A DNA stretch of 64,000 nt, taken from positions 3,841 through 67,840 of the forward strand of contig JAQTYG010000002.1 of the NCBI GenBank assembly GCA_028688375.1, written 5' to 3'. Under the pieces are notes generated by a model, which searched no databases, was not told the origin of the DNA, and worked only from the letters and a program-made list of their open reading frames with translations. Of the stretch, positions 10,085 through 60,244 are shown piece after piece (the first letter of the stretch is position 1; every line of letters begins with the position of its first letter). The stretch is from Patescibacteria group bacterium. Lineage in GTDB: Bacteria > Patescibacteriota > Patescibacteriia > Magasanikbacterales > GWA2-37-8. Position numbers and translations under genes: made by a program.

Positions 10085-11101
10085 ATGTTGAAGATTGAAA
10101 CAAAATTTGAAATGAGCAACAGCTGGTTGAAGGAAAATGTCAGCCGGCCGCCTTTTTGCCAGTCGTTTGAATGGGAAGAAATATTGTCGCGTGAAGGCAA
10201 AGATGTTGAACGCTTGGCCGTATTTGATGACGAAAAACCCGTGGCTATGGCACTGGTGGAATATCATAAATTGCCGTTCGGCTGGCGGTATGCTTTTTGT
10301 CCGAAAGGACCAATTACAGCTCGCAGTTCACAGCCCACAGTTCACAAAATTTACGAAGTTCTGGCCGGTTATTTTAAGAATAAAAAATGTATATTCTTTC
10401 GTTTCGAACCGATGGCGAACTGGGAACTGGGAACTGAGAACTGTGAACTTCGCAAAACCGTCGACATTAATCCGCGGGCGACGATGATTTTAGATTTGCG
10501 GCGTACGCCGGATGAACTACTCGCCGGTATGCATCAAAAGACACGATACAACATTAACTTGGCGCAGAAAAAAGATTTACGGGTAAGCGATATTAAAGAT
10601 GCCGACCTGTTCATGACTTTAATGAAAGCCACCGGTCAGCGCGATAAATTTCGTCTGCACCAGGTTAAACATTATCATGAAATAATTTTTTCTCCGTTGG
10701 CGCACCAGTTAACTGTTTTTTACGGACCACGCCCGATTGCCACAGCGATCTTTGCCGGCTTTGGCGATACTTTCACTTACGTTTTTGGCGCGTCCGATTA
10801 TGACCACCGCTCGCTAATGGCGCCGTATTTAATTCAATGGGAGGGGATTAAAATGGGGCAAAGATACGGCTATAGATATTATGATTTTTTTGGCATAGCG
10901 CCACAAAAAGGAATAAAGAGTAAGGAACAAGGAATAAATGATTATGAATATGACGTAAAACACCAATATGCCGGGGTGACAAGGTTTAAGCAGGGGTTTG
11001 GCGGCGCGTACCATGAAGACCCGGGAACATTTGATTTGATTATTTCACCGTGGAAGTATAGAGTATATAATTGGTTGCGGAGGATAAGAAGAATGATTTA
11101 G
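10085..11101 (+). CDS. FemAB-family peptidoglycan interpeptide-bridge aminoacyltransferase
   Basis: 338 aa, FemAB-like C-terminal region (YGYRYYDFFGIAP), acyltransferase fold pattern; contains in-frame oligonucleotide repeats. Confidence 0.6.
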   Translation: MLKIETKFEMSNSWLKENVSRPPFCQSFEWEEILSREGKDVERLAVFDDEKPVAMALVEYHKLPFGWRYAFCPKGPITARSSQPTVHKIYEVLAGYFKNKKCIFFRFEPMANWELGTENCELRKTVDINPRATMILDLRRTPDELLAGMHQKTRYNINLAQKKDLRVSDIKDADLFMTLMKATGQRDKFRLHQVKHYHEIIFSPLAHQLTVFYGPRPIATAIFAGFGDTFTYVFGASDYDHRSLMAPYLIQWEGIKMGQRYGYRYYDFFGIAPQKGIKSKEQGINDYEYDVKHQYAGVTRFKQGFGGAYHEDPGTFDLIISPWKYRVYNWLRRIRRMI

Positions 11102-11172
11102 TCCTTGTAGTTTAATGGATAAAATACCTCCCTCCGAAGGAGGTGATGCGCGTTCGATTCGCGCCGAGGGCA
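11101..11172 (+). tRNA. tRNA-Arg (anticodon CCG)
   Basis: acceptor GTCCTTG/CGAGGGC (two G-U), anticodon stem CCTCC/GGAGG, loop CTCCGAA, T-arm GCGCG-TTCGATT-CGCGC; weak D-stem. Confidence 0.55.
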
Positions 11173-11186
11173 CATTTAATTTTTTT

Positions 11187-12236
11187 ATGGATAACATAGA
11201 TTTAAAGAAAATTTCCGAGTTGCTTGCTAACCAGACAGGCCACTCGGTTCAAATTGAAAAAATAGAAAAAGTCGGGAGTGGGTATCACTCCGACGGTTTT
11301 AAGTTGGTCGCTGCCGATGGGCGGTGTTATTTTTTGAAAAAAGTTAAATCGCATGACTTGGGTTTTGAATTACCCGAAAGAAAAATCATGTCGCTTTTAG
11401 TAAGCAACGGCATGTGTAATCGGGCGAACATCGGTTCTAAATGTTTGGGTGTAGTGCTGGGCAACGGCGATGAAGTAAAAATGCTCCCCGAAGTAAATGA
11501 GGCCACGGAAATTTATCACCTTCAAGAATACGAGCCGGAAGGGACAAGTTATTGGTCGTTACTGCAGGCCAGAAAAAACCGGGCCGCGATTGAGCCGGAA
11601 GATTTATCGGAATTGGAAAAAATTACCGACTACATCAGCGCGGTTCATCGCGTAAAACATCCGTCGTCAGACGCCGGTCAACTCAAGGCGGTTTACAACG
11701 ACAGTCTGCGCGCTGTGCTGACCAACCCGGAATTAGCCATTATGCTTTTGTCCGATTATACCGACAGCCATCCGCTCCTTCCGGCCGGCGAGCATGGCGC
11801 GTATGTGGGTCTGATGCTCAATTTAATGTACCAGTGGAAAGATCGGTCCGATCGTCTGACCGCTTTGCACGGCGATTTTTGGGGCGCCAATTTATTTGTC
11901 AGAAAAGACGGCAGTGTGTGGATGATCGATTACTCAAGAATTCCCTGGGGCGATCCGGGGATAGACATCGGCTGGTGGCTGGCGCAGTATATTTGGTTTT
12001 ATCATGCCACCGGCAATCAGTATTTCAAAACAATGGGTGATAAGTTTTTAGAACTTTATATCGCCAAAACGAACGACCAAGAAATCAAACAAACCGTCGC
12101 CTTGTCGCTTGGTTTGTTGAACATTATATTTTTGTCACCCAGGTTTTATCCCGATCTTGATTTGTCGGTCGGAAAAAGCTTTTTCGATAATATCGTGGCG
12201 ATACTTAAAAAAGGAACTTTTATATGGACAAAATAG
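11187..12236 (+). CDS. phosphotransferase-family kinase (APH/choline-kinase fold)
   Basis: catalytic HGDFWGANLFV and IDYSRIPWGDPGIDIG (Brenner and DxG motifs); start moved to MDNIDL because track ORF start overlaps the tRNA. Confidence 0.6.
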   Translation: MDNIDLKKISELLANQTGHSVQIEKIEKVGSGYHSDGFKLVAADGRCYFLKKVKSHDLGFELPERKIMSLLVSNGMCNRANIGSKCLGVVLGNGDEVKMLPEVNEATEIYHLQEYEPEGTSYWSLLQARKNRAAIEPEDLSELEKITDYISAVHRVKHPSSDAGQLKAVYNDSLRAVLTNPELAIMLLSDYTDSHPLLPAGEHGAYVGLMLNLMYQWKDRSDRLTALHGDFWGANLFVRKDGSVWMIDYSRIPWGDPGIDIGWWLAQYIWFYHATGNQYFKTMGDKFLELYIAKTNDQEIKQTVALSLGLLNIIFLSPRFYPDLDLSVGKSFFDNIVAILKKGTFIWTK

Positions 12237-17160: not shown

Positions 17161-17286
17161 CGATTTTTTATCATAAAACAACGACTATATTTTATCACTA
17201 TTTTACAGTGTTTTCAAGTCCAAAAAGGGGATAGTTTGGGGAAAATGGGGATATTCTTTTTCGCTAATATTAGCCAAGTTAAGGTA

Positions 17287-17315
17287 TTGACAAAAAGGCA
17301 AAAATGTGCTATACT
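17287..17315 (+). promoter_or_regulatory. sigma70 promoter, near-duplicate of 7896-7924
   Basis: ttgacaaaaaggcaaaaatgtgctatact. Confidence 0.6.
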
Positions 17316-17410
17316 ATATTATTCTTTTACAAACTCCAGTCCCGCATGGTGCGGGACGGAAAACCCGGCCGCGGGGAACAGCGGCAGAAAGAAAACAGGA
17401 GGAAAGGTCC

Positions 17411-18136
17411 ATGACAAACCATGGCACGGTCCCCCAGAATCAGTTCGAAGAGTTCCTGGCCGCCCTCATCGTGGCTCTACCGCAGATGACGCCGGAGCAG
17501 ATGCAGAAGTTCATCCGGCTCTCGACCAAGACCAAGAGGAAGAAGCTCCGTGAGCTCTTCGGCACGACCGACACCGAGGTTTGGCGCGAGGAGTGGACGA
17601 AGTTCTACCTCGAGGTCTTCAACCTCGCGGTGGACCTGACGAACGTCGTCCTGCCCACCGAGGTGGAGGAGTTCGCCTGGCTGACGGTTCTGGCCAAGGA
17701 GCTCGGCGACACGCCGCTCAACACGGCCATGGTCGCTGCCAGGAAGCTCTTCAAGGGCAAGGTCTGGCAGTACTACGACGACCTGGACAAGGATGTCACC
17801 GTCAACGACCGCGACCTGAAGAACGGCTCCTACGCCATCCGCATCCGGGCCAGGGTGGAGGCCGACGAGGAGAACAAGGGCCTCTCGGCCAACCAGATCG
17901 CCGAGCGTAAGCTCGTGACGATGACGCTCCTGGAGCGCATCGTGCTGGAGCTGTTCTACTTCTGGAAGACCGGGAAGCACCTGGACATCCAGAACGTGAC
18001 GCTCTGCAGCGGCTCGCGCAGCTCGGATGGCCGCGTCCCGCGCTGCGACTTGTTTGGCGCTGGCCACTTCTTCGTCGACGACTGCCGCCCCGGCTGCGCC
18101 CGCGTCTACTTGCGGGCTCGTGTCGCAGTTTTGTAA
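17411..18136 (+). CDS. DGR target protein (GC-rich, about 64% GC), variable region at C-terminus
   Basis: SD aggaggaaagg then ATG at 17411; last about 42 codons form the VR copy of the TR/VR pair. Confidence 0.6.
   Translation: MTNHGTVPQNQFEEFLAALIVALPQMTPEQMQKFIRLSTKTKRKKLRELFGTTDTEVWREEWTKFYLEVFNLAVDLTNVVLPTEVEEFAWLTVLAKELGDTPLNTAMVAARKLFKGKVWQYYDDLDKDVTVNDRDLKNGSYAIRIRARVEADEENKGLSANQIAERKLVTMTLLERIVLELFYFWKTGKHLDIQNVTLCSGSRSSDGRVPRCDLFGAGHFFVDDCRPGCARVYLRARVAVL
18008..18131 (+). repeat. DGR variable repeat (VR)
   Basis: about 124-bp imperfect direct repeat of 18405-18528; differences concentrated where the other copy has adenine. Confidence 0.7.
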
Positions 18137-18169
18137 CTCGTTCCTTTAACTCTTATCTCACCGGTTCGT

Positions 18170-18215
18170 TCTCTCGCCCGTTTGTGTGTCTTGCACAGAC
18201 GGGCGTTTTCTTTTA
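18170..18215 (+). terminator. hairpin/terminator downstream of VR
   Basis: gcccgtttgtgtgtcttgcacagacgggc followed by gttttctttt. Confidence 0.55.
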
Positions 18216-18404
18216 AAATACTTTTGGCTAATACAACCAATCTCACGCGATGAGGTAATGGTTTGCCACAAATTGAAACTGCTTAATCGATTTTAGAGAG
18301 TATTCGTGAAATGTCGCGATGGCTCCAAACAACGCCTGCTTCGCGGGTCAACGCAGATAATTTTGTTAAAGATTATCGGTGATTTTTGATGAAATCGGTT
18401 AATA

Positions 18405-18528
18405 AGCGGCTCGCGCAACTCGGATGGCGACGTCCCGCGCTGCGACTTGGGTGGCGATGGCCACTTCCACGTCTACGGCTGCAGCCCCGACAACGCCAAC
18501 GACAACTTGCGGGCTCGTGTCGAAGTTT
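18405..18528 (+). repeat. DGR template repeat (TR)
   Basis: adenine-rich copy (AAC codons gac aac gcc aac gac aac in target frame); followed by hairpin aaaaaggagcttg-cgt-caagctcctttt. Confidence 0.7.
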
Positions 18529-18544
18529 CAAAAAGGAGCTTGCG

Positions 18545-18826
18545 TCAAGCTCCTTTTGTTTCCAAGTATCTTATCCAGCCGCTTGCCATTTTGGAAATTT
18601 CTACCAACTGGTTTTCAATATCCAGATATTTATTCGTGTTGATTATATCCAGTTCATTTTCCAGCCGAATCAGCCGCTTTAATATTTCTATTTCAATTTT
18701 TATTTTTCGCAAAATCGGAATTTTTGTCGCGCCGCCGAGCAGGGCGGCTTCAATGGAAAAGCCGAGAATGTCCAGGCCAAACTGTTCTATTTTCAAATGC
18801 AATCCGTGTCTGTCTTTTTTCGGCAC
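18545..18826 (-). CDS. Avd-like four-helix-bundle protein (accessory variability determinant / 23S rRNA IVS-protein family), opposite strand
   Basis: C-terminal RLENELDIINTNKYLDIENQLVEISKMASGWIRYL matches the NELETQL...KMLNGLIRSL signature; only 93 aa. Confidence 0.45.
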   Translation of the reverse strand: MPKKDRHGLHLKIEQFGLDILGFSIEAALLGGATKIPILRKIKIEIEILKRLIRLENELDIINTNKYLDIENQLVEISKMASGWIRYLETKGA

Positions 18827-18878
18827 GTTTTTGCCGAGGACATAAATATTCCTGTATAACTCCGTTATCTTATGAACA

Positions 18879-19898
18879 ATGGGGATAGAAATTGCGTCGG
18901 GGGGGGGGTTGCTTGATTGTATCGGCCATAATTTTTTTGATAAAATTATTTCTTTTGGTAATTTATTTCGTGCCTGGCGCGAATTTAAACGCGGGAAGAC
19001 GGGTAAAAACGACGTCAGAAAATTTTATTATTCATTGGAAGATAATTTATTTGAGTTGCGACGTGATTTATTAGAGCACCGCTACCAACCGGACAAGTAT
19101 GGCTTTTTCTATGTCCGCGACCCTAAATTGCGGCCGATTCACAAGGCCTCGGTCCGCGACCGGGTTTTGTTTCAAGCCGTGTTCCGTTTATTGTATCATA
19201 TTTTTGACCGGCATTTTATTTTTGATTCATATTCTTGCCGATTCGGCAAAGGCACGCATGCCGGCGTGTGGCGTTTGGAGCAATTCGTCCGACGGGCGAG
19301 CGCGAATTATTCAAGGCCGGTATTTGCCCTAAAGTGCGATGTGCAAAAATTCTTTTATAGCATTGACCATGATATTTTATTTGATTTGTTAAGGCGAAAG
19401 GTTGGCGACCCCAACACGCTATGGTTGATTGACAAAATAATAGACAGTTTTGAAATTGAACCGGGCAAGGGTCTGCCTCTCGGCAACGTAACCAGCCAGT
19501 TGTTTGCTAATATTTATTTGAATGAATTGGATCAATGGGTGAAACATGTTTTGCGGCGAAAATATTATTTGCGGTATTGCGATGATTTTGTGATTTTGGG
19601 GGATAGTGTCGCTGATTTACGAGCGTTGATTGAACCGGTTAATGATTTTTTAAAAGAAAAATTAAAATTGAACTTGCATCCGCGGAAAGTGGAAATCAGA
19701 AAATTATCGCAGGGGATTGATTTTCTGGGATATGTTGTTTTGTCCCGTCATATTGTACTGCGAACGAAAACAAAAAAGAGAATGTTTAGAAAGGTGGCAA
19801 ATTGTCCGTCAAGCCAGTCGTTGCAGTCGTATTTGGGAATGTTGAAACACGGCAATAATTTCAATCTGTATAATAAGATAAAGCGTTTATTTGGTTAA
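18879..19898 (+). CDS. DGR-type reverse transcriptase
   Basis: RT motif C RYCDDFVILG (YxDD) and DGR-diagnostic LGNVTSQLFANIYLNELD; 339 aa. Confidence 0.85.
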   Translation: MGIEIASGGGLLDCIGHNFFDKIISFGNLFRAWREFKRGKTGKNDVRKFYYSLEDNLFELRRDLLEHRYQPDKYGFFYVRDPKLRPIHKASVRDRVLFQAVFRLLYHIFDRHFIFDSYSCRFGKGTHAGVWRLEQFVRRASANYSRPVFALKCDVQKFFYSIDHDILFDLLRRKVGDPNTLWLIDKIIDSFEIEPGKGLPLGNVTSQLFANIYLNELDQWVKHVLRRKYYLRYCDDFVILGDSVADLRALIEPVNDFLKEKLKLNLHPRKVEIRKLSQGIDFLGYVVLSRHIVLRTKTKKRMFRKVANCPSSQSLQSYLGMLKHGNNFNLYNKIKRLFG

Positions 19899-19907
19899 AT
19901 GGGCCTA

Positions 19908-19936
19908 TTGACAATAAACTCACAATAGGTTATACT
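19908..19936 (+). promoter_or_regulatory. sigma70 promoter for rpsA (TTGACA-17-TATACT)
   Basis: ttgacaataaactcacaataggttatact; 130-nt structured leader precedes rpsA. Confidence 0.55.
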
Positions 19937-20069: not shown

Positions 20070-21263
20070 ATGTCAGACAACACACAGGACTTCAAGAAGC
20101 TGCTCGAAGAGCATCTGATGAATTTTCCCAAGGTCAACGATATCGTTAAAGGCAAAGTGATTTCTGTGGACAAAGGGGAAATCCGTATTGACGTGGAAAA
20201 TTTAACCACGGCGATTGTGCGCGGGCGCGAAATGTTTTCCGAATCGCGCGAATACGCCGGCCTTAAACCGGGCGACGAAGTGGAAGGCACGGTCATTGAT
20301 TTAGAAAATGAAAACGGTGAAATGGAACTCTCGTTCCGCATTGCCGGTATGCAGAGGGTTTGGGACAATGCCAGAAAGTGGATGTCGCAAGGTTTGACCC
20401 TCAAAGCCAAAATCCTTTCCGCCAACAAAGGCGGTTTGATGATGCAGGTGGGCCCGTTGGCCGGTTTTATGCCGGTCTCGCAACTCAACCCGGATCATTA
20501 TCCGCGAGTGGCCGGTGGCGACAAGAACCGCATTTTGGAAAAATTACTAGAAATGGTCGGCCAGGAGTTTGAAGTGAAAGCGATTGACGTGGATGAGAAA
20601 GAAGAAAAATTAATCGTCTCGGAAAAAGCGGTTTGGGAAGACGCCCAAAAAGCCGTGCTTGAGGCCTACAAAGTGGGCGACATCGTGGAAGGCGAAGTTA
20701 GCGCCATTACTTCCTTCGGCGTGTTCCTGCGCTTCGGCGAGGGGCTGGAGGGCTTGGTGCATATTTCCGAAATCGCCTGGCAGAGAATTGACCACCCGAA
20801 AGATTTGCTCAAAGTGGGCGACAAAGTCCGCGCGCAAATTATTCAGCTGGATCACTCCAAAATTTATCTGTCCATCAAACGATTGGTGGATGACCCGTGG
20901 AAAAAAGTGAAAGATAAATACAAGGTGGGGGAGACGGTGAAAGGCAAAATTTTGAAAGTGGAACCGTTCGGCCTGATGGTCAGCCTGGACAAAGAAATCC
21001 ACGGCCTGGCACACATCTCCGAATTGTCCGACGAGCCGATTGCCAACATTCATGACAAATTCAAAATTGGCGACACTCTGGACTTTGCCGTGGTCTCGCT
21101 CGAGCCGGCCGAACACCGTTTGGGCCTGCGCGTGGCCGGAGTAAAAGGCAAGGCCGCGCGAAAGGCCACCGCCACCGCCACCGCAGAAGCGGGGCAGGCA
21201 GAAGCGGGGCAGGTTGAAGAGAAAAAGGAAGAAACGGTAGCGGAAGAGAAAAAAGAAGAGTAA
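20070..21263 (+). CDS. rpsA: 30S ribosomal protein S1
   Basis: four S1 domains, Lys/Glu-rich tail; tail contains ATATAEAGQAEAGQ segment shared with ORF 23675-23977. Confidence 0.85.
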   Translation: MSDNTQDFKKLLEEHLMNFPKVNDIVKGKVISVDKGEIRIDVENLTTAIVRGREMFSESREYAGLKPGDEVEGTVIDLENENGEMELSFRIAGMQRVWDNARKWMSQGLTLKAKILSANKGGLMMQVGPLAGFMPVSQLNPDHYPRVAGGDKNRILEKLLEMVGQEFEVKAIDVDEKEEKLIVSEKAVWEDAQKAVLEAYKVGDIVEGEVSAITSFGVFLRFGEGLEGLVHISEIAWQRIDHPKDLLKVGDKVRAQIIQLDHSKIYLSIKRLVDDPWKKVKDKYKVGETVKGKILKVEPFGLMVSLDKEIHGLAHISELSDEPIANIHDKFKIGDTLDFAVVSLEPAEHRLGLRVAGVKGKAARKATATATAEAGQAEAGQVEEKKEETVAEEKKEE

Positions 21264-21305: not shown

Positions 21306-21340
21306 TTGTTATCCCGCCCGGTTTTGGCGCTCAAAAACTA

Positions 21341-21369
21341 TTGACAGGCCCGCCGGAATGTGCTATAAG
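21341..21369 (+). promoter_or_regulatory. sigma70 promoter with extended -10 (TTGACA-17-TGcTATAAG)
   Basis: ttgacaggcccgccggaatgtgctataag. Confidence 0.5.
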
Positions 21370-22127: not shown

Positions 22128-22265
22128 GCGGCCTCGCCCCTCTGCCTGTCGGCCCCCCGGGGCTCTCGTTCGTTTCATACTACGGTGTGAACAGCGAGAG
22201 TCCTTTTTTTATCTCGGCTTTGCGCAATATGAAATAAACCTGCTACTATATCCGTATTAACATAT

Positions 22266-22823
22266 ATGGAACAAGAACGGGCACAACTTGTCTCCGATGA
22301 GGATTTGGCCATAAAATCACTGGCCAACGGCGAATTGTTCGCCGAATTGATGCGCCGGTTTGAAGGGCGCCTGCTTTTGTATATTTGTCGCATTTCCGGT
22401 TTTGTGACTGAAGACGCGGAAGACGTGTTGCAGAAAGTGTTTATTAAGGCCTACTTTAATTTGCGCGATTTTGATCGAGGACTGAAGTTTTCTTCCTGGA
22501 TTTACCGCATCGCCAGAAATGAAACCATCAGCGAATGGCGCCGGCGCAAAGCCCGGCCGAGCGTTTATTTGAATGACGAAGATTGGCAAAAAATACAAAG
22601 CGAGTCAGATTTGTTTGAAAATGTTCACCGTAATTTTGATAAAGAAAAAATTTCGGCCGCGCTGGAACAGCTGGACGAAAAATATCGCCAGGCGATTGTT
22701 CTGTATTTTTTTGAACAGAGAAGCTACGAAGAAATCGGCGACATTATTCAAAAGCCGGTTAGCACGGTCGGCACGCTAATCAGCCGGGCGAAAAAACAAC
22801 TAAAAAATATTTTAATTAAATAA
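22266..22823 (+). CDS. ECF-type RNA polymerase sigma factor
   Basis: sigma70 region 2 (FIKAYFNLRDFD...SWIYRIARN) and region 4 HTH (YRQAIVLYFFEQRSYEEIGDIIQKPVSTVGTLISRAKKQLK). Confidence 0.8.
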   Translation: MEQERAQLVSDEDLAIKSLANGELFAELMRRFEGRLLLYICRISGFVTEDAEDVLQKVFIKAYFNLRDFDRGLKFSSWIYRIARNETISEWRRRKARPSVYLNDEDWQKIQSESDLFENVHRNFDKEKISAALEQLDEKYRQAIVLYFFEQRSYEEIGDIIQKPVSTVGTLISRAKKQLKNILIK

Positions 22824-22824
22824 T

Positions 22825-23613
22825 ATGTCCCCAGAAGTCAGCCAGAAAGTTTTGGCCCAAATTCAACACGATAAAATTGAGCCGGTCGGCAAGTGGCGTT
22901 TTGTTTGGCGCCGCCTGTTGTTTTGGTTGTTGGCCGGAGTAGCCGTGGTGTTAGGCGGGTTGTCAGCCGGCACGGCTTATTTCATGCAAGCCAATCAGGA
23001 TTGGGATATCTGGCCCAGATTAACCGACAGTTTTATTACCTTTTTTCTTTTGGTTCTACCGTATTTTTGGATTATTTTATTTGGTATTTTTGTCGTGCTG
23101 GTATATTTAAATTTGCGTCACACCAAATACGGCTATCGTTGGCATTTTTGGCTGATTGCCGGCGGTTATGTTGTTATCACCGCCGTATTGGGCGCGATAT
23201 TTTACCAAGCGGGTTTAGCCGGTAAGATTGAAACTGTTTTGGGCGAGGCTTTGCCTCTTTATCATCATGTTAATTATGGCAGTGGTATTTGGGCCAAGCC
23301 GGAAAGCGGGCTGTTGTCAGGCAGGGTGGTGAGCGTATCTGGCACGGTGTTTATTTTAGAAGATTTAGACGGACAAAAGTGGACGATAGCCAGCGCCGGG
23401 GCAGTCAATATAGATTTAATCGCGCCGGAGGCGCGGCTAAAGATCGTCGGAGAAAAAGCGGAGGCCGGAATTTTTAGGGCCAATGAAATTCGCTCGTGGT
23501 GCGGTTGTGGCGGTTGTTCCGCTGGCCCGTCCGCTGGGGATAGCTGCGCGGGCGGCGCCATCTGCGAGGGCGCGAGTGGCTGTCAGCATGCCGGTTGTTC
23601 AATGATGAAATAA
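22825..23613 (+). CDS. membrane protein, putative anti-sigma factor, Cys/Gly-rich C-terminus
   Basis: start 2 nt after sigma stop; several TM helices; C-terminal CGCGGCSAGPSAGDSCAGGAICEGASGCQHAGC. Confidence 0.45.
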   Translation: MSPEVSQKVLAQIQHDKIEPVGKWRFVWRRLLFWLLAGVAVVLGGLSAGTAYFMQANQDWDIWPRLTDSFITFFLLVLPYFWIILFGIFVVLVYLNLRHTKYGYRWHFWLIAGGYVVITAVLGAIFYQAGLAGKIETVLGEALPLYHHVNYGSGIWAKPESGLLSGRVVSVSGTVFILEDLDGQKWTIASAGAVNIDLIAPEARLKIVGEKAEAGIFRANEIRSWCGCGGCSAGPSAGDSCAGGAICEGASGCQHAGCSMMK

Positions 23614-23674
23614 TTTTTATCGAGCTTGCGTATTAGATTATGAGAGCGCTCGATTAATTCTTTAACCATAAACT

Positions 23675-23977
23675 ATGAAACCATTTTGGTTTATAGGCGG
23701 GATGGCGGTAGCGGCCATTTTGCTCGTCGGTGTCGGCATTGCCGTCGCCGCTACGGGCAATCCGGCGCGCCCACTGGCCATCGCGCCGGTGACGACGGAA
23801 GTAAAAACAGCCTCCGGTTGCGGCTGTAGCATGGGAGCTGCCGGCGCCACTGCCACCGCAGAAGCGGGGCAAGCAAATGCGGGGCAAGGCGGTTGCGGCG
23901 CGGCCGGATGCACCGCCGGGTGCAGCGAATGCCAAGGCAAGTGCGGTGGCGGTTGCAGCGGTGGTTGCGGCAAGTAA
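23675..23977 (+). CDS. small membrane-anchored Cys/Gly-rich protein
   Basis: 100 aa, N-terminal TM, C-terminal GCGCS...GGCGAAGCTAGCSECQGKCGGGCSGGCGK; shares 43-nt segment with rpsA tail. Confidence 0.5.
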   Translation: MKPFWFIGGMAVAAILLVGVGIAVAATGNPARPLAIAPVTTEVKTASGCGCSMGAAGATATAEAGQANAGQGGCGAAGCTAGCSECQGKCGGGCSGGCGK

Positions 23978-23979
23978 GT

Positions 23980-24022
23980 AATTAAAAATCCCTCCGATTT
24001 TTTACATCGGAGGGATTTTTTT
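23980..24022. terminator. bidirectional intrinsic terminator
   Basis: aaaaatccctccgat-tttttac-atcggagggattttttt. Confidence 0.75.
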
Positions 24023-24240
24023 ATATTTGCCATTTTCTTACGGCGCTGGAAGTATCGCTGTCGCTCTCGGGTGTTTGGTTTTTCTCCGGCGGCCCATATG
24101 GGTCATCATAGGTTGGTATGGTCGCGCGCTCGCCTTCTTGATTTTGTTTTTTTCTTTCCTTCTCCATTTTTTCTCTGATTACAAGGTCTATCGGTACGTC
24201 TCGGTGATCAAAATCTTTTTTTGGAGCCATATAATTTAAA

Positions 24241-24711
24241 TTATTTTATTTCCGTAATCGCCATCAGCCAGCGCCAGACGATTTTTTCATTTTTCTTGCC
24301 GACAAAATGAAACCAGACTTCGTTGAAAAACTCCTTTTTTAATTTATGAATCGCTCGGTTTTCTTCCGGGTTACATAAATAGATGTGCGTTTTATCCAGG
24401 CCGACGACAACCGAATAATGGTCGGAATATTCGCTGAACCAACCGATAATGACCGGCAAATGTTTTTTATTAACCCAGTAATCCAAATCTTTGTCAGTGG
24501 CGGCGGTTTTTACGGATACCTTTGCTCCCAACTGTTTAGCCGTCTTAACCAAATCTTCGTGCTCGGCGCCGTATTTTGCCGAGGCTTTACAGTGGCGAAT
24601 TAATTTGTTTATTTTTTCGTCTTTGCCGAAAAAGGATAACAAAATTTTGAGCGAGTACGGACCGCACATGCCCGGCGTTTGTCTAAAATGTTTTACTTTG
24701 AGCAATTTCAT
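24241..24711 (-). CDS. standalone C39-like cysteine peptidase domain protein
   Basis: N-terminal Q...CGPYSLKILLSFFG (C39 Gln/Cys motif), mid-region LGAKVSV, later HYSVVVGLDKTHIYLCNP (His region). Confidence 0.55.
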   Translation of the reverse strand: MKLLKVKHFRQTPGMCGPYSLKILLSFFGKDEKINKLIRHCKASAKYGAEHEDLVKTAKQLGAKVSVKTAATDKDLDYWVNKKHLPVIIGWFSEYSDHYSVVVGLDKTHIYLCNPEENRAIHKLKKEFFNEVWFHFVGKKNEKIVWRWLMAITEIK

Positions 24712-24721
24712 ACCTTATATT

Positions 24722-25288
24722 TTAGTCCTTTAAATATTCGGCCACGCCGTCCTTGCGTCTGGCTTGTTTTTCTCTGGCGCTGGCAAAATCATGCGCGTCG
24801 TTATAACTCAGGCCTTTTTTCATTAAATTTAACTCATAAAGTTCGTGAATTAAAACATATTTTCGTTCCTTTGTCAACATGGCGTCATCCAACCAAATTT
24901 CGTTTTTCGGGACATATTTATATACCAGCCAATGCCCGCCAAAGACAAAATTAAAATCCAGATGTTGGCGCACCAAACGACCGGAGACCAAGTAAATTTT
25001 TACGGCGCCGCGCTGGGATAATAATTTTAGGCGGATTTTTTTCAGATCAATTTTTTTCATTCCACTCAGAAGAATTTTTTTAGCTCGGGCATAGCCGTAT
25101 TTTTTCATTAGCTTTCGTTTTTTTAAAAAAACGGCCGACATTATTTTTTTTTCTTTCAAAAAACCACGGTCAAACCAAATTTCGCCTTTGGGGATGAAGG
25201 GCATGGACAGGCGGTCTTCTATATTGCAAAAATCAATATCAACGGTGTTGCGGATTTTCCAGCCGTCGACGATTTTGAGTTTAGGCAT
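24722..25288 (-). CDS. hypothetical protein with internal duplication
   Basis: repeated P-K-(G/N)-EIW-(F/L)-D motif; possible HELYE metal site; unknown family. Confidence 0.4.
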   Translation of the reverse strand: MPKLKIVDGWKIRNTVDIDFCNIEDRLSMPFIPKGEIWFDRGFLKEKKIMSAVFLKKRKLMKKYGYARAKKILLSGMKKIDLKKIRLKLLSQRGAVKIYLVSGRLVRQHLDFNFVFGGHWLVYKYVPKNEIWLDDAMLTKERKYVLIHELYELNLMKKGLSYNDAHDFASAREKQARRKDGVAEYLKD

Positions 25289-30990: not shown

Positions 30991-31554
30991 AGGAGAGACG
31001 GGAAAACGGCCTATCAATAACAAATAGTAATTGTGGCCAAACATTTACCCTCTCCTTTACCGGAGTAAAATCCGGTTCGTTCATTGGTTCTTTATAACAT
31101 GATTTCATATTGCCAGTTGAGACAGGAGAGAAATCTCCATCGGCGACATGAAATATGTCTGACTTACTTTTTACCTATTATATAGGTGGAAAGATCGGAT
31201 GCGGTTGATGGGCAGATTTGCGGGAACGCGAACTGTTCCACCGGCATCCGACTACTCGCTTGTCAGAGCGCGTAGTACCGAGTGCAACCCGTCCTAATAC
31301 TTCGCAAGAAGAATTGGGACAGGGACAATCGGCGCTACAGAGAGAGTGGCGACGAAGTACTTTGACAATTTACTTTCAGAAGACAGCAACAGGCCGCTGT
31401 GTCATCCTGAGCGGATCCGCCGACAAGCGGAGAAGTCGAAGGATCCCTTCGGCGCAATCGTTGTTGGTGTTTTTTGAAGGCGCCATCACAAGGTGTGATG
31501 GCGCAAAAACAACAAACCCCGGCGCCGTGGGTGAAACGGGCGAGTGAGGGAAAA

Positions 31555-32742
31555 ATGAAAGTTGTCGTGTGCGGACCGCCGCACAGCGGCAAGTCCGTGT
31601 TTCTCACGGGTCTCGTCGGTCAGTTGGACCGACGGGACTACTACCTTTTTCGGGCCTGCCCGGATGGCGAAGGGAGCTGGACGTATGCCCATGAGGGCAA
31701 CGCGGCTCTCCGCCGCAAGGGCGGGTTCACCACGGAATTCGTGGAGTGGTGCGTCCGCACTCTCCACAACAACAACATGGCTCCCTGTGTCCTGGTGGAT
31801 GTGGGGGGACGAATGACGGCCGAGAACCGGCGGATCATGGCGGAGTGCGACTTCGCTATCATCCTCGCCGGCGATCCGGCCGCCATCGGCGAGTGGCGGA
31901 ACTTCTGCTCCGAGTGTGGCTTGGCAGTAATCGCCGAGCTGCATTCGGACTACCGCGGCCGAAAGGACGTGGTCGAATGTGAGAGTCCGGTGGTGCGCGG
32001 CAGCGTGCATCACCTCGAACGGGGGGAAGACGTCACGAGTCGGCCCGCGATAGAAGCGGTGGGTCGCCTCATTAACCGGCTGCTCGACGAGCAGCGCAGG
32101 GAGAGGGAGAAAAAAATGGACAATATCGTGAACGCCATCACCGTCCTGATCGCCGAGCTGGCCGTGGCCCTCGGCAAGCAGAAGGTCAAGAAGACCTTGC
32201 CGAACGGCAAGGTCATCGAGACCATCGAATGGCTGGGCGAGGACCTCCGGTCCTTGTCCCGGCTCCTGCACTCCAAGTCGGCGGAGTACGCCGGCAAGGA
32301 CGTGAGGATCGACGGGGGAGCTCCGGGCTTCCTCGTTGCCGCCCTGGTGCACGAGTTGCACCCGGCGGACGTGTCGGTGAACTCACCGGATGGGTTCATT
32401 CCCATCCGGTGCCAGTCGCCCGAAGGCGACGGGCGCGGGGATAACCTGCGGTTCCGCGTCGAGGACCGGGGCGATTTCACCCTGGTTACCGCGGAGCAGC
32501 AGGATCCGTCCCGCCCCCTCGACCCGGCCAAGCTGGGCGAGATTGCCCCACCCGACGTGCCGATGGGGACCATCGTGGTCCTCAACGGCAGGATGCCCCA
32601 CTGGCTTTTGGCCAGTCTGGGCATGAGCTACCACGGCCGGACCAAGGCCGTGGCGGCCAACCAGCCGGGGCTGGGGGCGACGGTGTTCATGACCCACTCG
32701 GCTTCGGTCGAGTTGGGCTCGATGATCACGGTTGCGCTCTAG
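31555..32742 (+). CDS. GC-rich (about 66%) P-loop NTPase-domain protein, unknown family
   Basis: ATG after SD gagggaaaaATG; Walker A VVCGPPHSGKSV at residues 4-15; about 395 aa; preceded by about 350-nt structured leader. Confidence 0.5.
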   Translation: MKVVVCGPPHSGKSVFLTGLVGQLDRRDYYLFRACPDGEGSWTYAHEGNAALRRKGGFTTEFVEWCVRTLHNNNMAPCVLVDVGGRMTAENRRIMAECDFAIILAGDPAAIGEWRNFCSECGLAVIAELHSDYRGRKDVVECESPVVRGSVHHLERGEDVTSRPAIEAVGRLINRLLDEQRREREKKMDNIVNAITVLIAELAVALGKQKVKKTLPNGKVIETIEWLGEDLRSLSRLLHSKSAEYAGKDVRIDGGAPGFLVAALVHELHPADVSVNSPDGFIPIRCQSPEGDGRGDNLRFRVEDRGDFTLVTAEQQDPSRPLDPAKLGEIAPPDVPMGTIVVLNGRMPHWLLASLGMSYHGRTKAVAANQPGLGATVFMTHSASVELGSMITVAL

Positions 32743-32966
32743 GCGATACGAAAAAAATCTCACACCCGTGAGTTGCGGCAAATCCTAACCGCGTAAAACG
32801 ACAGGTCGACTCGCATCCGTAACTGCGCGCCAGTCCGAGTAAGGCGTGAATCTCGGAAACACTCGGAGGCCGACATCGCACATGTCGGCCCTCCAATTAC
32901 CGCACCAAATGCTTTGGCGCGGTTGAGGAGAAAACAAACGGGTCAAAGTGACCCAAAGGAGAGGCA

Positions 32967-33773
32967 ATGGAAAACAATATCAACAGCGACACTACCACCA
33001 ACTCCGACAACGACCGCGACATCGTCGCGGAAGCCGCCGAGCGGTACGCCGAAGGGCGCCAGCAAGCCATCGAGGTCTGCCGCGTCGTGGCGGAGGCGGC
33101 GAGGGTCCGGCGCGTTAAGGATGACGTGCCGGAATGCGTCGCGGGCGCTGCCCGCGACTTCCTGGCGAAGGCGACGGCGCCGGCCCGACACGAGTCCCGT
33201 GTCGCGGCCACCGTCGCGTGCGCGCGCGCATGGATTCGCGCCTTCGGGCGCGAGTCCATTGAGGAGTACGAGGACATCTGCGTCCTCATTCTCCTCATCG
33301 CCGACCTGTTCGGGGTCGGCGGTCCGAACGGGTTGGGTGGCGCCACCAGGCGCCACCCGGCTTTCACCGCCCTTGGAAAGGGGCGGTGGCAGGCCAGTGA
33401 CGGCAGCGCCTACCGCGCCGCCGTCGTCGGCGCCGCGGCCGAGCTTTTCAACAAGCTCGGCTCCGTCGTCGTCGACGCCGAGGGGTCCATCAGGACCCAC
33501 TCGGCGGTGATCGACAGCGACTGGGCGGTGGAGGCCATCGGCGAGCCCGAGTTCGCCGAGGCGTTCTTGCGCCACCTCCTGCTCGTCCTCGCCGGTCCAG
33601 AGAAAATCTGGAGCGTGTTCGACACGGGCAACTGGTGGGGGATTGAGCTCCCCCAGGGCGAGGACCGGCGCACGGCCATCGCGGCCGTTTCCGCCTCATT
33701 CAACGACGCGCATCGCATGATGTGCGTCGGAAAGGAGGATGTTACCGTGCCGGCCGACGAGACCGGCTGGTAG
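32967..33773 (+). CDS. GC-rich (about 67%) hypothetical protein
   Basis: 268 aa, SD aaaggagaggcaATG, Ala/Arg/Glu-rich, no recognisable motif. Confidence 0.45.
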   Translation: MENNINSDTTTNSDNDRDIVAEAAERYAEGRQQAIEVCRVVAEAARVRRVKDDVPECVAGAARDFLAKATAPARHESRVAATVACARAWIRAFGRESIEEYEDICVLILLIADLFGVGGPNGLGGATRRHPAFTALGKGRWQASDGSAYRAAVVGAAAELFNKLGSVVVDAEGSIRTHSAVIDSDWAVEAIGEPEFAEAFLRHLLLVLAGPEKIWSVFDTGNWWGIELPQGEDRRTAIAAVSASFNDAHRMMCVGKEDVTVPADETGW

Positions 33774-33893
33774 ACAACACACGCGCACCGTAACTGTGCT
33801 AAACACAACCCGAGTTGAACGTTACGGGTTCAGCTTTATCACTCGGACGGGCGAATTGCACATTCGCCCCTCCAATTACCATAATATTATTCT

Positions 33894-34099
33894 GGATTCC
33901 CGCCTACGCGGGAATGACAAAATAAAACTATGGTTGAGGAGGAAAACCCGGAAGATTTCCATTCAAAGGAATCTCTCCTCCCGCGAAACGGGAATCGAAA
34001 GGGTTTAATCTGAAATTAAAAAACCCCGGCGTAAAGCCGAGGTTTTTTAATTTATTATTGCCGAAGGGATCCTTCCCCGCCCAAGGCGGGTCAGGATGA
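33894..34099. repeat. cluster of hairpin-repeat-family copies downstream of GC island
   Basis: ggattcccgcctacgcgggaatgacaa (33894-33920) and gccgaagggatccttccccgcccaaggcgggtcaggatgac (34059-34099), inverse orientation relative to 17053-17160 copies. Confidence 0.55.
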
Positions 34100-58043: not shown

Positions 58044-58793
58044 ATGGCGCCAGCTTACGTCAAAATTCATTGGTTTAAAACCTGGTGGGGGATTACCATC
58101 ATTGCTTTTTTATGTTTTTTAATCGCCGCGGCCTTGGCTTTTACGGCGCTTATTTTTAATTATTGGAAAACGATTAAATCCGGGCAGGGCGCGCTTTTGC
58201 AACAAAAATTCGGCGCGCAGTACGGCCAGGCCCAAACCGAGGATCCGGCGGTGGTGCTGGCGCGTAAAGAATTGGAGACTGCCGATGACCCTTATTTAGG
58301 CAACGCGACCGCCGATACGGTTATCGTGGAATTCAGTGACTTTAAATGTCCGATTTGCAAGGCGGAAGCGCCGGTTTTACAGCAACTGGCCGGCAAGTAT
58401 GGTTATAAAATAAAAATAATTGTTCGTGATTTCGCCATGGAGTCGGTGCATACCGGCGCGTCGCGCTTGGCCGAGGTGGCTTCTTGCGCCAACGAGCAAG
58501 GCGGTTATTGGCTGTTCTCTGATTATTTTTTCGCCAATCAGGATAGTTTGGGCGCGGATTTTAACAGCGCGGCGGTGGATCGGCTGGTGGATGAATACGG
58601 TTTGGACAAAAGCAAAATGCGGAATTGTTTGGAGACCGGCCGGGGCCGGATTGAAGCGAGCAAGGACTATACCGACGGTTATAAAAACGGTGTCAGCCGA
58701 GGCACGCCGACTTTTTTCGTGAACGGACACAAGCTGGAAGGTTTTGTTTCGTTGGAAACTTGGGAAAAAGTATTTAAAGAGGCGGGGATTTAA
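58044..58793 (+). CDS. DsbA-family thiol:disulfide oxidoreductase (membrane-anchored)
   Basis: thioredoxin active site FKCPICKAEAP, N-terminal TM. Confidence 0.75.
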   Translation: MAPAYVKIHWFKTWWGITIIAFLCFLIAAALAFTALIFNYWKTIKSGQGALLQQKFGAQYGQAQTEDPAVVLARKELETADDPYLGNATADTVIVEFSDFKCPICKAEAPVLQQLAGKYGYKIKIIVRDFAMESVHTGASRLAEVASCANEQGGYWLFSDYFFANQDSLGADFNSAAVDRLVDEYGLDKSKMRNCLETGRGRIEASKDYTDGYKNGVSRGTPTFFVNGHKLEGFVSLETWEKVFKEAGI

Positions 58794-58810
58794 AAATAAT
58801 TGAGGCGGTT

Positions 58811-60244
58811 ATGTCTAAAAAAATAATTATCATTTTTTTTCTGGCCATATCGGTTTTTTGGCCGACCATTGTTTTTGGCCAAGCCCAGACCTCCGCTACG
58901 AATCCGCTCTGTTGGACCAAAGAGCTTTGCAAGCAAGAGCGAGACAAGTATGGCGTCTCCGGCGCAGACAGTGGCTGGGTCCAAGAAGAACCATGCCTCG
59001 GTGATTGGGGGAAGTGTTTGCCGGGCGCCGTGACAAAAGCGGAGGTTTCTTTCGGTGGTAGCAGCCAGTTTACCGATATCGGTCAATATATTAAGACCAT
59101 CTATAATTATTCCTTGGTGATTATCGGTATATTAGCCACAGTGATAATTATTATTTCCGGCGCTCAATGGATAACTTCGGCCGGCAACACCGAAACTATC
59201 AGCAGCGCAAAAAAGAAAATTACCGGAGCGGTGATCGGTTTGGTTATTGCTTATATGTCTTATAATATTTTGAACAGTATCAATCCGGCTACGGTAAATT
59301 TGCGCTTGCCGCAGGTTTGGCTATTACGCAGTGTTCCTTTGCCACCCAAGTGGTGCCAGGAAGTGCAGCTACAAGTCGCAGGAGCGTCCTTGCCGGATGC
59401 TTTTAAAGTAACTAAAGAATATGTAAAGTTTGCCAAAGACCAATATAACACCAATCTTTCTCCTGATGTACCATTTAAGCAGAGCGAAACACTGTGTGGA
59501 GTGCAGTTTGAGTCGCCGGCCGGCGGTTACTGTTTTGGCAGTGTTTGCGACGGCCTGTCGCCGAGCAGCAATGATGCGGATATCAAAAATAAAATTTGCG
59601 GCAAGGATTTTCCCTGCGCCTGTTATCCAAAAAAATCCAGCAGTGATATGTCCATCAATGTCTGTCAGCCGTCAAGTTTGGGTGGAACAATAAATATGAA
59701 TGGGAAAAATAAAATTGAGGATTGGTATGTTGACTATATAACATTGTACGCTCTGTGCCATGTCGGCGAACAATATTCTGTGCGGAGAGTCGATTATTCT
59801 GACCCGGATGAGGACAATGCGGATTATGGATTAACTGCTCACACTGATAATAATGCTGATTGCGCTTTTGCTCCTGGCTCCGGCGGCAGCCAAGGTGGCA
59901 CGCCTTTATTATCCGGATATTTTTTGGCGGTTGAAGTAAACGACGCCGGCTCTGTCATATCCCAAGATGATACCTGGGTTTTGGGGAAAAAATCATGCGG
60001 CAATGGCGGCAAACCAATAGTCGGGGCGAACATGGCGAGCTTCGCGCCCCTGGCAGACCCGTCTAATGCGAAAGAATATACGCTTACACTTGGCGTTATG
60101 GCGGAAATGATGGCCGGAGGCGATTTGTGGGGCGCTTCGGATTTAGCGAAAGGAGTTACCTGCGACATCGTTACGAACGTTCCCCCATACAATATCGGTC
60201 TAGAAAACTCAGACCTTAAAGACGGTGTTTTTTATCGCCCTTAG
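58811..60244 (+). CDS. secreted Cys-rich protein with TrbC/VirB2-pilin-like double-TM segment
   Basis: signal peptide; paired hydrophobic helices separated by a short polar loop (residues about 100-160); about 25 Cys in C-terminal 300 aa. Confidence 0.4.
   Translation: MSKKIIIIFFLAISVFWPTIVFGQAQTSATNPLCWTKELCKQERDKYGVSGADSGWVQEEPCLGDWGKCLPGAVTKAEVSFGGSSQFTDIGQYIKTIYNYSLVIIGILATVIIIISGAQWITSAGNTETISSAKKKITGAVIGLVIAYMSYNILNSINPATVNLRLPQVWLLRSVPLPPKWCQEVQLQVAGASLPDAFKVTKEYVKFAKDQYNTNLSPDVPFKQSETLCGVQFESPAGGYCFGSVCDGLSPSSNDADIKNKICGKDFPCACYPKKSSSDMSINVCQPSSLGGTINMNGKNKIEDWYVDYITLYALCHVGEQYSVRRVDYSDPDEDNADYGLTAHTDNNADCAFAPGSGGSQGGTPLLSGYFLAVEVNDAGSVISQDDTWVLGKKSCGNGGKPIVGANMASFAPLADPSNAKEYTLTLGVMAEMMAGGDLWGASDLAKGVTCDIVTNVPPYNIGLENSDLKDGVFYRP

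Follow-up and report, generated by a model that had tools for sequence, protein, structure and literature searches.

The window analysed here comprises 64,000 nucleotides (nt) of contig JAQTYG010000002.1 from the metagenome-assembled genome of a Patescibacteria group bacterium, and the locus under study consists of two gene modules within it. Module 1 (22230-23977, + strand) encodes an extracytoplasmic function (ECF) sigma factor, a membrane protein with a Cys-rich tail, and a small exported Cys-rich protein; module 2 (24021-25288, - strand) includes a C39-like peptidase. An earlier sequence-only reading had described five open reading frames (ORFs) in this neighbourhood, all of which were found in place, and had proposed that the Cys-Gly tails serve either as metal or redox sensors or as substrates of the peptidase. 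On balance, we lean towards two unrelated modules, the first being a thiol-responsive circuit of sigma factor, three-transmembrane (3-TM) anti-sigma factor, and Cys-rich protein, and the second a separate unit. The three-gene ECF cassette is, to judge from the loci compared, a feature of a sub-clade of Patescibacteria, the small-genome and mostly uncultured bacteria of the candidate phyla radiation (CPR). Module 1 and the terminator that follows it contain these features:

22230..22259, + strand: P1, candidate ECF-type promoter TGAAAT-N17-CGTATTA 5′ of the sigma gene (motif at the same place in 8/8 loci)
22266..22823, + strand: ECF (group 4) sigma-70 factor, 185 amino acids (aa) (Pfam Sigma70_r2 and r4_2; TIGR02937)
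22825..23613, + strand: putative anti-sigma/sensor, 262 aa, with a short cytoplasmic N-helix, three TM segments, an extracytoplasmic OB-fold, and a Cys-rich tail (AlphaFold2 (AF2) model, synteny)
23311..23496, + strand: OB-fold beta domain, residues 163-224 of the 262-aa protein (AF2 and Foldseek)
23500..23610, + strand: Cys-rich tail CGCGGC-x9-C-x5-C-x5-C-x4-C with 7 Cys among 37 residues, outside the cell by prediction (18/20 homologues)
23606..23635, + strand: P2, candidate ECF-type promoter TGAAAT-N17-CGTATTA over the stop codon of the membrane-protein gene, 5′ of the small gene (motif in 8/8 loci)
23644..23651, + strand: GC-rich palindrome GAGCGCTC just 3′ of the P2 -10 element (same position in 8 loci)
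23675..23977, + strand: small exported Cys-rich protein, 100 aa with 9 Cys, consisting of an MKxLWFxGG signal/anchor, an AxA-like motif, a linker, C-G-C, and a Cys/Gly-rich tail (orthologues)
23984..24023, unstranded: bidirectional intrinsic terminator hairpin ATCCCTCCGA...TCGGAGGGAT with A and T runs on its flanks (read from the sequence)

The first gene encodes an ECF sigma factor, as had been claimed. Its product matched Sigma70_r2 (2.9e-13) and r4_2 (3.2e-15) in Pfam and scored 94 bits against TIGR02937 (cut-off 42.9); at 185 aa and with sigma2 and sigma4 as its only sigma regions, it agrees with ECF group 4 (~180-200 aa). The best named model was SigW, at scores below the equivalog cut-offs (NF007223, 103.7 versus 209 bits; TIGR02948, 95.9 versus 243 bits), and we regard the protein as SigW-like in a loose sense only. 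A single nucleotide separates its stop codon (TAA, 22821-22823) from the ATG of the 262-aa gene at 22825. This spacing is compatible with the translational coupling proposed by the sequence-only reading.

The 262-aa protein, identical to NCBI locus tag PHD72_01565, was modelled by AF2 (pLDDT 74) as a helix (residues 3-15), three long hydrophobic TM helices (H23-57, H70-98, and H108-128), an amphipathic helix, a five-stranded beta domain, and a disordered tail, in keeping with the polytopic membrane protein described earlier. The strands of the beta domain were predicted at pLDDT 85-89, and the top Foldseek matches of this domain in the PDB were OB folds, namely those of IF1, RPA, and CcmE, a haem chaperone anchored in the membrane (E ~1e-3, TM-target 0.7). 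All seven Cys of the protein fall within its final 37 residues, the first 225 being free of Cys. Structure prediction of this tail, which had been suggested as a check, returned disorder (pLDDT <40) and no fold. No Pfam or NCBIfam family was found for the protein.

A word-indexed search yielded 20 relatives of the 262-aa protein. The C-terminus EIRSW-C-G-C-G-G-C, followed by 2-4 further Cys, was retained in 18 of them, either with the near-fixed spacing W-C-x-C-x2-C-x7-C-x6-C-x5-C-x-C or in a shorter five-Cys form, which corroborates the Cys-rich C-terminus noted earlier. Because the tails are conserved in these 18/20 membrane homologues as well as in 8 orthologues of the small protein, the Cys tails of both proteins are evidently not chance low complexity.

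Across the 20 homologues, the count of Lys plus Arg was 6.2 in the N-terminal segment, 1.4 in loop 1, and 3.1 in loop 2, the last of which holds the invariant motif HTKxGYR. By the positive-inside rule, the N-terminus would be cytoplasmic, with the OB domain and the Cys tail outside the cell. The opposite orientation would place the OB domain and the tail in the cytoplasm, as a zinc-binding sigma-binding module C-terminal to the TM region that resembles the zinc-binding anti-sigma (ZAS) factors. Anti-sigma domains C-terminal to the TM region are indeed predicted in some new ECF groups (PMC7826278), and ZAS factors such as RsrA bind zinc through Cys clusters (PMC3177212). However, the charge bias is clear in the 20 homologues, neither an HxxxCxxC motif nor a zf-HC2 match was found, and the classical N-terminal export/anchor signal of the small partner puts its Cys region outside, so we consider the reversed topology very unlikely.

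Each of the 12 loci examined had the membrane-protein gene directly after an ECF sigma gene, the two overlapping or lying ≤56 nt apart. We infer that the 3-TM protein is the cognate anti-sigma factor and that it would bind the sigma factor via its N-helix and cytoplasmic loop. A profile search of 1.84 billion representative sequences returned 3,039 matches to its scaffold as 50%-identity representatives (1,410 at E<=1e-30), and the 3-TM plus OB scaffold thus appears to be a very common family without annotation.

The third gene encodes a 100-aa protein that begins with a hydrophobic segment and has its 9 Cys entirely within the last 53 residues, in line with the membrane-anchored protein with a Cys/Gly tail of the sequence-only reading. 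Its orthologues (75-100 aa) share the start M-[NK]-x-L-W-F-x-G-G, a hydrophobic stretch that closes with an AxA-like motif, then a linker, C-[GA]-C, and an end rich in Cys and Gly; the C-G/A-C motif and 5-7 further Cys were kept in all 8 of them. The small protein matched nothing in Pfam or PDB, and nothing in NCBIfam at E<=1. A repeat of 47 nt (87% identity) is shared between its gene (23840-23886) and the region encoding the C-terminal tail of ribosomal protein S1 (21165-21211, ATATAEAGQAEAGQ). In the small protein, the repeat adds 14 residues in frame (ATATAEAGQANAGQ) to the linker. Its absence from the orthologues in the comparison loci L001, L006, and L007 gives this insertion the look of a recent ectopic copy, and it suggests an unstructured, tolerant linker.

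The AxA-like motif bears on whether the small protein stays in the membrane. It ends the hydrophobic segment in 8/8 orthologues (AVA, AFA, AAA, VAA, VNA, ASA, VSA, and AEA), as would be expected of a cleaved, secreted Cys-rich peptide (a signal, an antimicrobial, or a metallophore-like molecule) recognized by the tail and OB domain of the membrane protein in an autocrine or quorum-type loop. The small gene's own sigma-type promoter and the co-variation of tail and peptide in Cys number would also suit such a loop. The hydrophobic segment, however, is long (~20-23 residues) and equally suits a membrane anchor, and the cassette conserves no exporter or processing gene. We therefore judge such a loop with a secreted peptide to be quite unlikely and prefer the thiol-responsive circuit, in which the small protein may be anchored or cleaved.

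Comparison loci are designated L001-L027. Pattern scans for additional loci gave 4 in genomes and 7 in metagenomes, the back-translated patterns being very specific. Eight distinct loci with a Cys-tailed membrane protein and downstream DNA were available (the window, L001, L002/L020, L004, L006, L007, L012/L016, and L018), along with three control loci encoding members without a Cys tail (L022, L024, and L026); two more such members were on contigs too short for downstream genes. The trio of sigma factor, membrane protein, and small Cys protein was complete in 8/8 Cys-tail loci and in 0/3 controls. Cys numbers were paired across the loci, with seven-Cys tails accompanied by nine-Cys small proteins and tails of five or six Cys by seven-Cys small proteins. 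The idea that an odd tail and an odd small protein add up to an even total was not relied on, as it holds in 7/8 loci only (6+7 in L018). The Magasanikbacteria-like loci L001, L006, and L007 have the order S1, sigma, membrane protein, small protein, convergent peptidase and a relative of the 188-aa protein of module 2 (working labels for these relatives are DUF187, DUF188, and DUF189; here DUF189), and FtsH, which matches the window except that an S66 peptidase takes the place of C39. In L002 and L004, the cassettes occur in other contexts without any peptidase.

Both candidate promoters were conserved along with the genes. P1 is located 7 nt before the ATG of the sigma gene, just after the S1 terminator, and P2 40 nt before the small gene. 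They were the sole matches to TGAAAY-N15-18-CGTA on either strand of the window. Across loci, the motif reads TGAAAK-N16-17-CGTAWTA, with both sites present in 8/8 loci, and 16 of the 18 matches to a relaxed motif in 137 kb were P1 or P2 sites. Within a given genome, the two sites vary together (L002 has TGTA in each -10 element, L004 has GCAAY in each -35 element), the pattern expected if one sigma factor reads both. The SigW-type ECF consensus is TGAAAC-N16-CGTA, which we take the P1/P2 motif to resemble. Given this conservation and co-variation, the sigma factor probably autoregulates its operon from P1 and directly drives the small gene from P2, both promoters being motif-based candidates. 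Palindromes follow the P2 -10 element in all 8 loci with differing sequences (GAGGCCTC and TAGGACCTA, GGGCCC elsewhere) and could act as an operator or as a 5′ end structure.

The 5′ untranslated region (UTR) of the small Cys gene is ~100-140 nt long in L001 (6800-6916), L006 (6792-6913), and L007 (6792-6941) and contains a conserved long hairpin, CGYCRCCTCCGG...CCGGGGGYGRCA. Of its 18 predicted pairs, 3 show compensatory changes, a sample of three sequences being too thin for a covariation call. The hairpin could be a regulatory RNA element; an Rfam scan of the window and the three loci found tRNAs only and assigned it to no known family. In the window, the UTR of the small gene is short and lacks this hairpin. 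A promoter-like sigma-70-type element distinct from the P1/P2 motif, TATTGACA...TGTGCTATA (-35 and extended -10), recurs in the window at 17285-17313, 19906-19934, and 21339-21367, 5′ of the target gene of a diversity-generating retroelement (DGR), the S1 gene, and a 214-aa ORF, respectively.

For module 1, the most likely function is that of a thiol-based envelope sensor, with metal or oxidant as the presumed signal, and a Cys-rich buffer or feedback partner. The co-translated 3-TM protein would retain the sigma factor at the membrane, with the short basic N-terminal helix and the invariant cytoplasmic loop HTKxGYR as the probable contact surface. The OB-fold and the C-x-C-x2-C...C tail would face outside, where modification of the tail thiols by a thiophilic metal, oxidation, or alkylation may relieve the inhibition. 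The freed sigma factor would then act on P1, and hence its own operon, and on P2 at the small gene; the latter looks like a direct sigma output because P1 and P2 co-vary within genomes. The resulting exported Cys-rich polypeptide, anchored or signal-cleaved, might serve as a surface thiol or metal buffer, or might re-engage the sensor tail and provide CpxP-like negative feedback. As a sensor of metal or redox state, the Cys tail is plausible but unproven. This half of the functional proposal in the sequence-only reading fits the conserved, predicted-outward, and co-occurring tails as well as the sigma-type promoter of the small gene, whereas the other half, tails as C39 substrates, is unsupported (see below).

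A bolder version makes the sensor tail and the small protein induced by the sigma factor matched thiol partners outside the cell, linked by a shared metal-thiolate cluster or a mixed disulfide, with the polypeptide itself as the anti-sigma ligand. We consider this quite unlikely. If true, it would represent a peptide- or thiol-relay control of ECF sigma factors not described before and would be among the first defined signal-transduction circuits of CPR bacteria.

The Cys segments may instead be structural, that is, disulfide-knotted extracellular mini-domains or wall-attachment modules, with the OB domain as the sensor and the small protein as an ordinary envelope protein of the regulon. Most scaffold members are paired with a sigma factor yet carry no Cys tail, the constant spacing of the Cys recalls disulfide-rich folds, and a DsbA-like exported thioredoxin encoded in the window makes extracytoplasmic disulfides possible. 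On the other hand, the tails are rich in Gly, Ala, and Ser, have no hydrophobic core and no AF2 fold, and odd Cys numbers prevail, with 7 or 5 in most tails and 9 or 7 in every small protein. That tail and small protein strictly co-occur and match in Cys number argues for a functional link between them over independent structural modules, and we regard a purely structural role as unlikely. The thioredoxin gene (58044-58793; Thioredoxin_4, 7e-22) is directly 5′ of a gene for a 477-aa protein with a T4SS-pilin-like domain (58044-60244 for both). Its presence means that thiol-disulfide machinery exists outside the cytoplasm of this organism, a point that bears on what becomes of exported Cys-rich proteins.

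Several observations weigh against a thiol-responsive circuit. The anti-sigma assignment of the 3-TM protein is drawn from adjacency and coupling. The search for anti-sigma domains that the sequence-only reading had called for found none: zf-HC2, RskA, and other anti-sigma Pfam models gave no match in 20/20 family members at E<=1, and the tails matched no ZAS domain; such a match would have spoken against the sequence-only reading. The cytoplasmic N-segment is ~22-30 residues long, far below the size of a class I anti-sigma domain (~60-90 aa, 3-4 helices), and has a single helix (residues 3-15) before TM1 and no Cys/His motif; HxxxCxxC is absent. The Cys tail is an add-on, since most scaffold-family tails are basic or Pro-rich instead: at least 4 Cys were found in the tails of 26 of the best 166 matches, the others being basic, Gly/Arg-rich, or Pro-rich. 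The OB domain could accordingly be the primary sensor. The tails of the membrane protein and the small protein match no metal-binding family. Metallothionein Pfam models gave no match at E<=10 in the 8 small-protein orthologues, nor did PDB sequences at E<=10, in searches in which compositional filters hamper the scoring of short Cys/Gly sequences. The promoter calls derive from motif conservation, P1 overlaps a possible sigma-70-type extended -10 element (TGCTACTAT), and the three control loci are a small sample. Finally, a hint of a redox regulon in L004, where genes for a peroxiredoxin and an Fe-SOD lie downstream, was not counted, as these genes are behind a terminator and have a sigma-70-like promoter of their own.

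Module 2 is convergent to module 1, as had been described, and the two units meet at the bidirectional terminator hairpin (23984-24023) that parts them. It comprises three ORFs:

24021..24230, - strand: small ORF of 69 aa, acidic/basic, 3′ of the C39 gene and part of the peptidase unit (L001 orthologue)
24241..24711, - strand: standalone cytoplasmic C39-like cysteine peptidase, 156 aa (PF03412, PF13529)
24722..25288, - strand: 188-aa protein of a CPR and DPANN family, internally duplicated, with a putative minimal zincin-like fold (AF2, 71 homologues)

The papain-like C39 domain passed the HMM check that had been named for it, with PF03412 at 8.6e-14 (52 bits, cut-off 22) and PF13529 at 4.3e-07. 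Cys16 and His98 were invariant in 7 homologues and Asn/Asp113 was conserved, as in the Peptidase C39 family. The protein has no signal peptide, TM segment, or ATP-binding cassette (ABC) fusion; NF033920 scored 31 bits (cut-off 150), and no TPR region was present. The 69-aa ORF has an orthologue in L001 (34% identity, MxPK...PY.P.E...V..WQ conserved), and L008 has a 63-aa gene at the corresponding position.

The internal duplication reported for the 188-aa protein is real (IPKGEIWFD...LMKKYGY and VPKNEIWLD...LMKKGLSY). Its 71 homologues are from CPR bacteria and DPANN archaea, and 0/71 matched Pfam. Invariant residues are H148-E149-x-x-E152, H166-D167, E173, and R177-R178 in the C-terminal repeat (HExxE...HD...E..RR), which corresponds to a metal-site motif HExxE...(13)...HD rather than the zincin HExxH. 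AF2 modelled the protein at pLDDT 95.7. A fold search of the PDB gave nothing significant (best E 0.5, ZMPSTE24 and IrrE), while in BFVD the C-terminal half matched one viral protein (E 2.8e-8, rmsd 1.3 Å over 97 columns) and, weakly (~1e-2), many small phage peptidases and IrrE-like and SprT-like proteins. We read the protein as a putative duplicated minimal zincin-like domain, the second copy of which keeps a variant HExxE metal site. The next gene always encodes a peptidase: four lineages have a standalone C39, and L001, L006, and L007 have an S66 LD-carboxypeptidase at that chromosomal position. This suggests that either the two proteins are functionally paired, with peptidases that can stand in for one another, or the site is a gene-replacement hot spot.

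The C39 gene always adjoined DUF188, and the pair occurred apart from the cassette. L008 and L009 have FtsH, DUF187, C39, the 63-aa gene, and S1, and L010 has a DUF188-like gene and C39; in L027, an Uhrbacteria genome, the DUF188-C39 pair is beside ATP synthase and WecG. None of these loci has the cassette, and conversely, 7/8 distinct cassette loci lack C39. Because each module occurs without the other across loci, that C39 adjoins the Cys-rich genes is a matter of local synteny and not of function; module 2 is a conserved CPR unit in its own right rather than the processing enzyme of the Cys-rich proteins.

The same comparison decides on the proposal that the Cys/Gly-rich proteins are precursors cut by the neighbouring C39 at a double glycine, perhaps then modified and exported, as in a bacteriocin-like system of ribosomally synthesized peptides that are modified after translation (RiPPs). 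A true C39 domain with an intact Cys/His pair is indeed encoded on the other strand at a distance of 260 nt, a GG is conserved at residues 8-9 of the small protein, and the Cys/Gly-rich composition of this protein is loosely reminiscent of SCIFF/ranthipeptide cores. This sole conserved GG, however, comes after just 7 residues, where the signal/anchor helix starts, and does not close a leader of 15-30 residues, and C39 is predicted to be cytoplasmic, whereas the Cys-rich regions are predicted outside the cell. The only radical S-adenosylmethionine gene in the window is MiaB-type (UPF0004 and TRAM), adjoins MiaA, and is 17 kb away. The window contains no peptidase-ABC exporter, C39 scored ~31 bits against the bacteriocin exporter models TIGR01193 and TIGR03796 (cut-offs >500), and SCIFF (TIGR03973-type), NHLP, and other NCBIfam peptide models did not match the small protein at E<=1. 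With 7/8 cassette loci lacking a nearby C39 and no maturase or exporter, a double-glycine system was rejected as extremely unlikely. PADLOC and PHROG scans for defence systems and phage families gave no match for the cassette proteins, C39, DUF188, or the small ORFs. The two modules are accordingly treated as separate in what follows.

Further features of the window and the comparison loci lie outside both modules. The DGR (17306-19898) comprises a reverse transcriptase (18879-19898; RVT_1, 2e-21; LGNVTSQ and YCDD motifs) and a 124-nt template repeat (18405-18528) that is 85% identical to the variable repeat (18008-18131) at the 3′ end of an upstream 276-aa ORF; 13 of the 19 mismatches are at template adenines. 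L008 likewise has a reverse transcriptase and bAvd adjoining S1. After FtsH, the window has an 810-aa GNAT-domain protein, whereas L006 (10905-12768) encodes an 838-aa protein with MVP_shoulder and weak Vault_3 Pfam matches, major vault protein domains that are unusual for bacteria. A 422-aa ORF (31474-32742) with a C-terminal Cas_csx3 domain (1.8e-15) is at the edge of a 2-kb island (32000-34000) of 63.5% GC, compared to ~47% elsewhere in the window, with many overlapping ORFs on both strands; the island could be of foreign origin, or it could be non-coding or repetitive. A tRNA (11101-11172, Rfam 61 bits) starts at the stop codon of a FemAB-family gene (10085-11101) and overlaps the annotated start of an APH-like kinase ORF (11115-12236), so the true start of the latter is probably further downstream.

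CPR bacteria, or Patescibacteria, account for a large share of bacterial diversity, and their environmental sensing is hardly known. They live attached to hosts in anoxic settings, and surface thiol chemistry could report exposure to oxygen, sulfide, or metals, or contact with the host. The scaffold search defines a widespread ECF partner family (~3,000 50%-identity clusters, no Pfam or NCBIfam model), whose Cys-tail sub-clade would constitute a compact circuit in which a sensor tail is joined by a pair of cognate promoters and a single output gene. For module 2, a tempting RiPP/bacteriocin annotation is removed and a conserved CPR pair of HExxE protein and C39 is flagged, the HExxE family being found also in DPANN archaea.

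The literature searched contained no description of a CPR module that combines a 3-TM protein, an OB-fold, and an external Cys tail with a sigma-driven Cys-rich protein. Like the C39 domains of bacteriocin exporters and standalone C39-like peptidases (e.g., the PA2778 family), the C39 protein is papain-like with a Gln/Cys/His/Asn-Asp constellation. Unlike these, it is a lone domain of 156 aa without TM, ABC, or TPR parts and without a nearby GG-leader substrate, and its partner is a zincin-like HExxE protein rather than a transporter. For the cassette, NrsF, CnrYX, CorE, and ECF238/287/288 offer parallels, none of which is homologous to it.

NrsF, the partner of sigmaF in Caulobacter crescentus, is polytopic with an N-segment of ~25 residues, needs its periplasmic Cys to hold sigmaF inactive, and responds to Cr and Cd (PMC3511200). 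As in that system, the second gene of the operon here encodes a multi-pass protein with a short N-segment and, by prediction, conserved extracytoplasmic Cys; the sigmaF-NrsF system is likewise notable for a response to thiol-reactive metals, a small regulon, and autoregulation (PMC3511200). NrsF, however, has six TM segments, two periplasmic Cys, no soluble domain, and no co-regulated Cys-rich small protein, whereas the protein described here has three TM segments, an OB-fold, and a tail of 5-7 Cys. There is no sequence, DUF1109, or HMM match between the two, and the resemblance is functional only.

CnrH-CnrY-CnrX of Cupriavidus (Ni/Co) is also a three-gene ECF module with a small membrane-anchored extracytoplasmic protein and a minimal anti-sigma factor (PMC6851896). 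In CnrYX, the anti-sigma factor has a short cytoplasmic sigma-binding segment, and the operon promoters are sigma-dependent (PMC6851896). CnrX, by contrast, is a four-helix-bundle sensor based on His, Glu, and Met, CnrY is single-pass, and neither is Cys-rich; gene order and folds differ, and the small partner described here has a separate promoter.

The tail itself is paralleled in CorE/CorE2 and ECF238/ECF287/ECF288, in which CxC and a variable Cys-rich segment of 20-50 residues sense metal or redox state, with Cys number and spacing varying (PMC6851896, PMC7826278). The CorE-type Cys domain is fused to the sigma factor, is cytoplasmic, and replaces the anti-sigma factor, whereas in the cassette it belongs to the membrane partner, has a predicted extracytoplasmic location, and recurs in a small protein of its own. 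Thiol-based control of ECF sigma factors, as proposed here, is known from the ZAS factors RsrA, RsiW, and ChrR (PMC3177212, PMC4960319); compared to these, the 3-TM protein has no HxxxCxxC and no class I domain, and its Cys lie at the other end of the protein and, by prediction, across the membrane. If the tails do sense metals or oxidants at the cell surface, the cassette would represent an extracytoplasmic thiol switch unlike those of ZAS, CorE, and NrsF.

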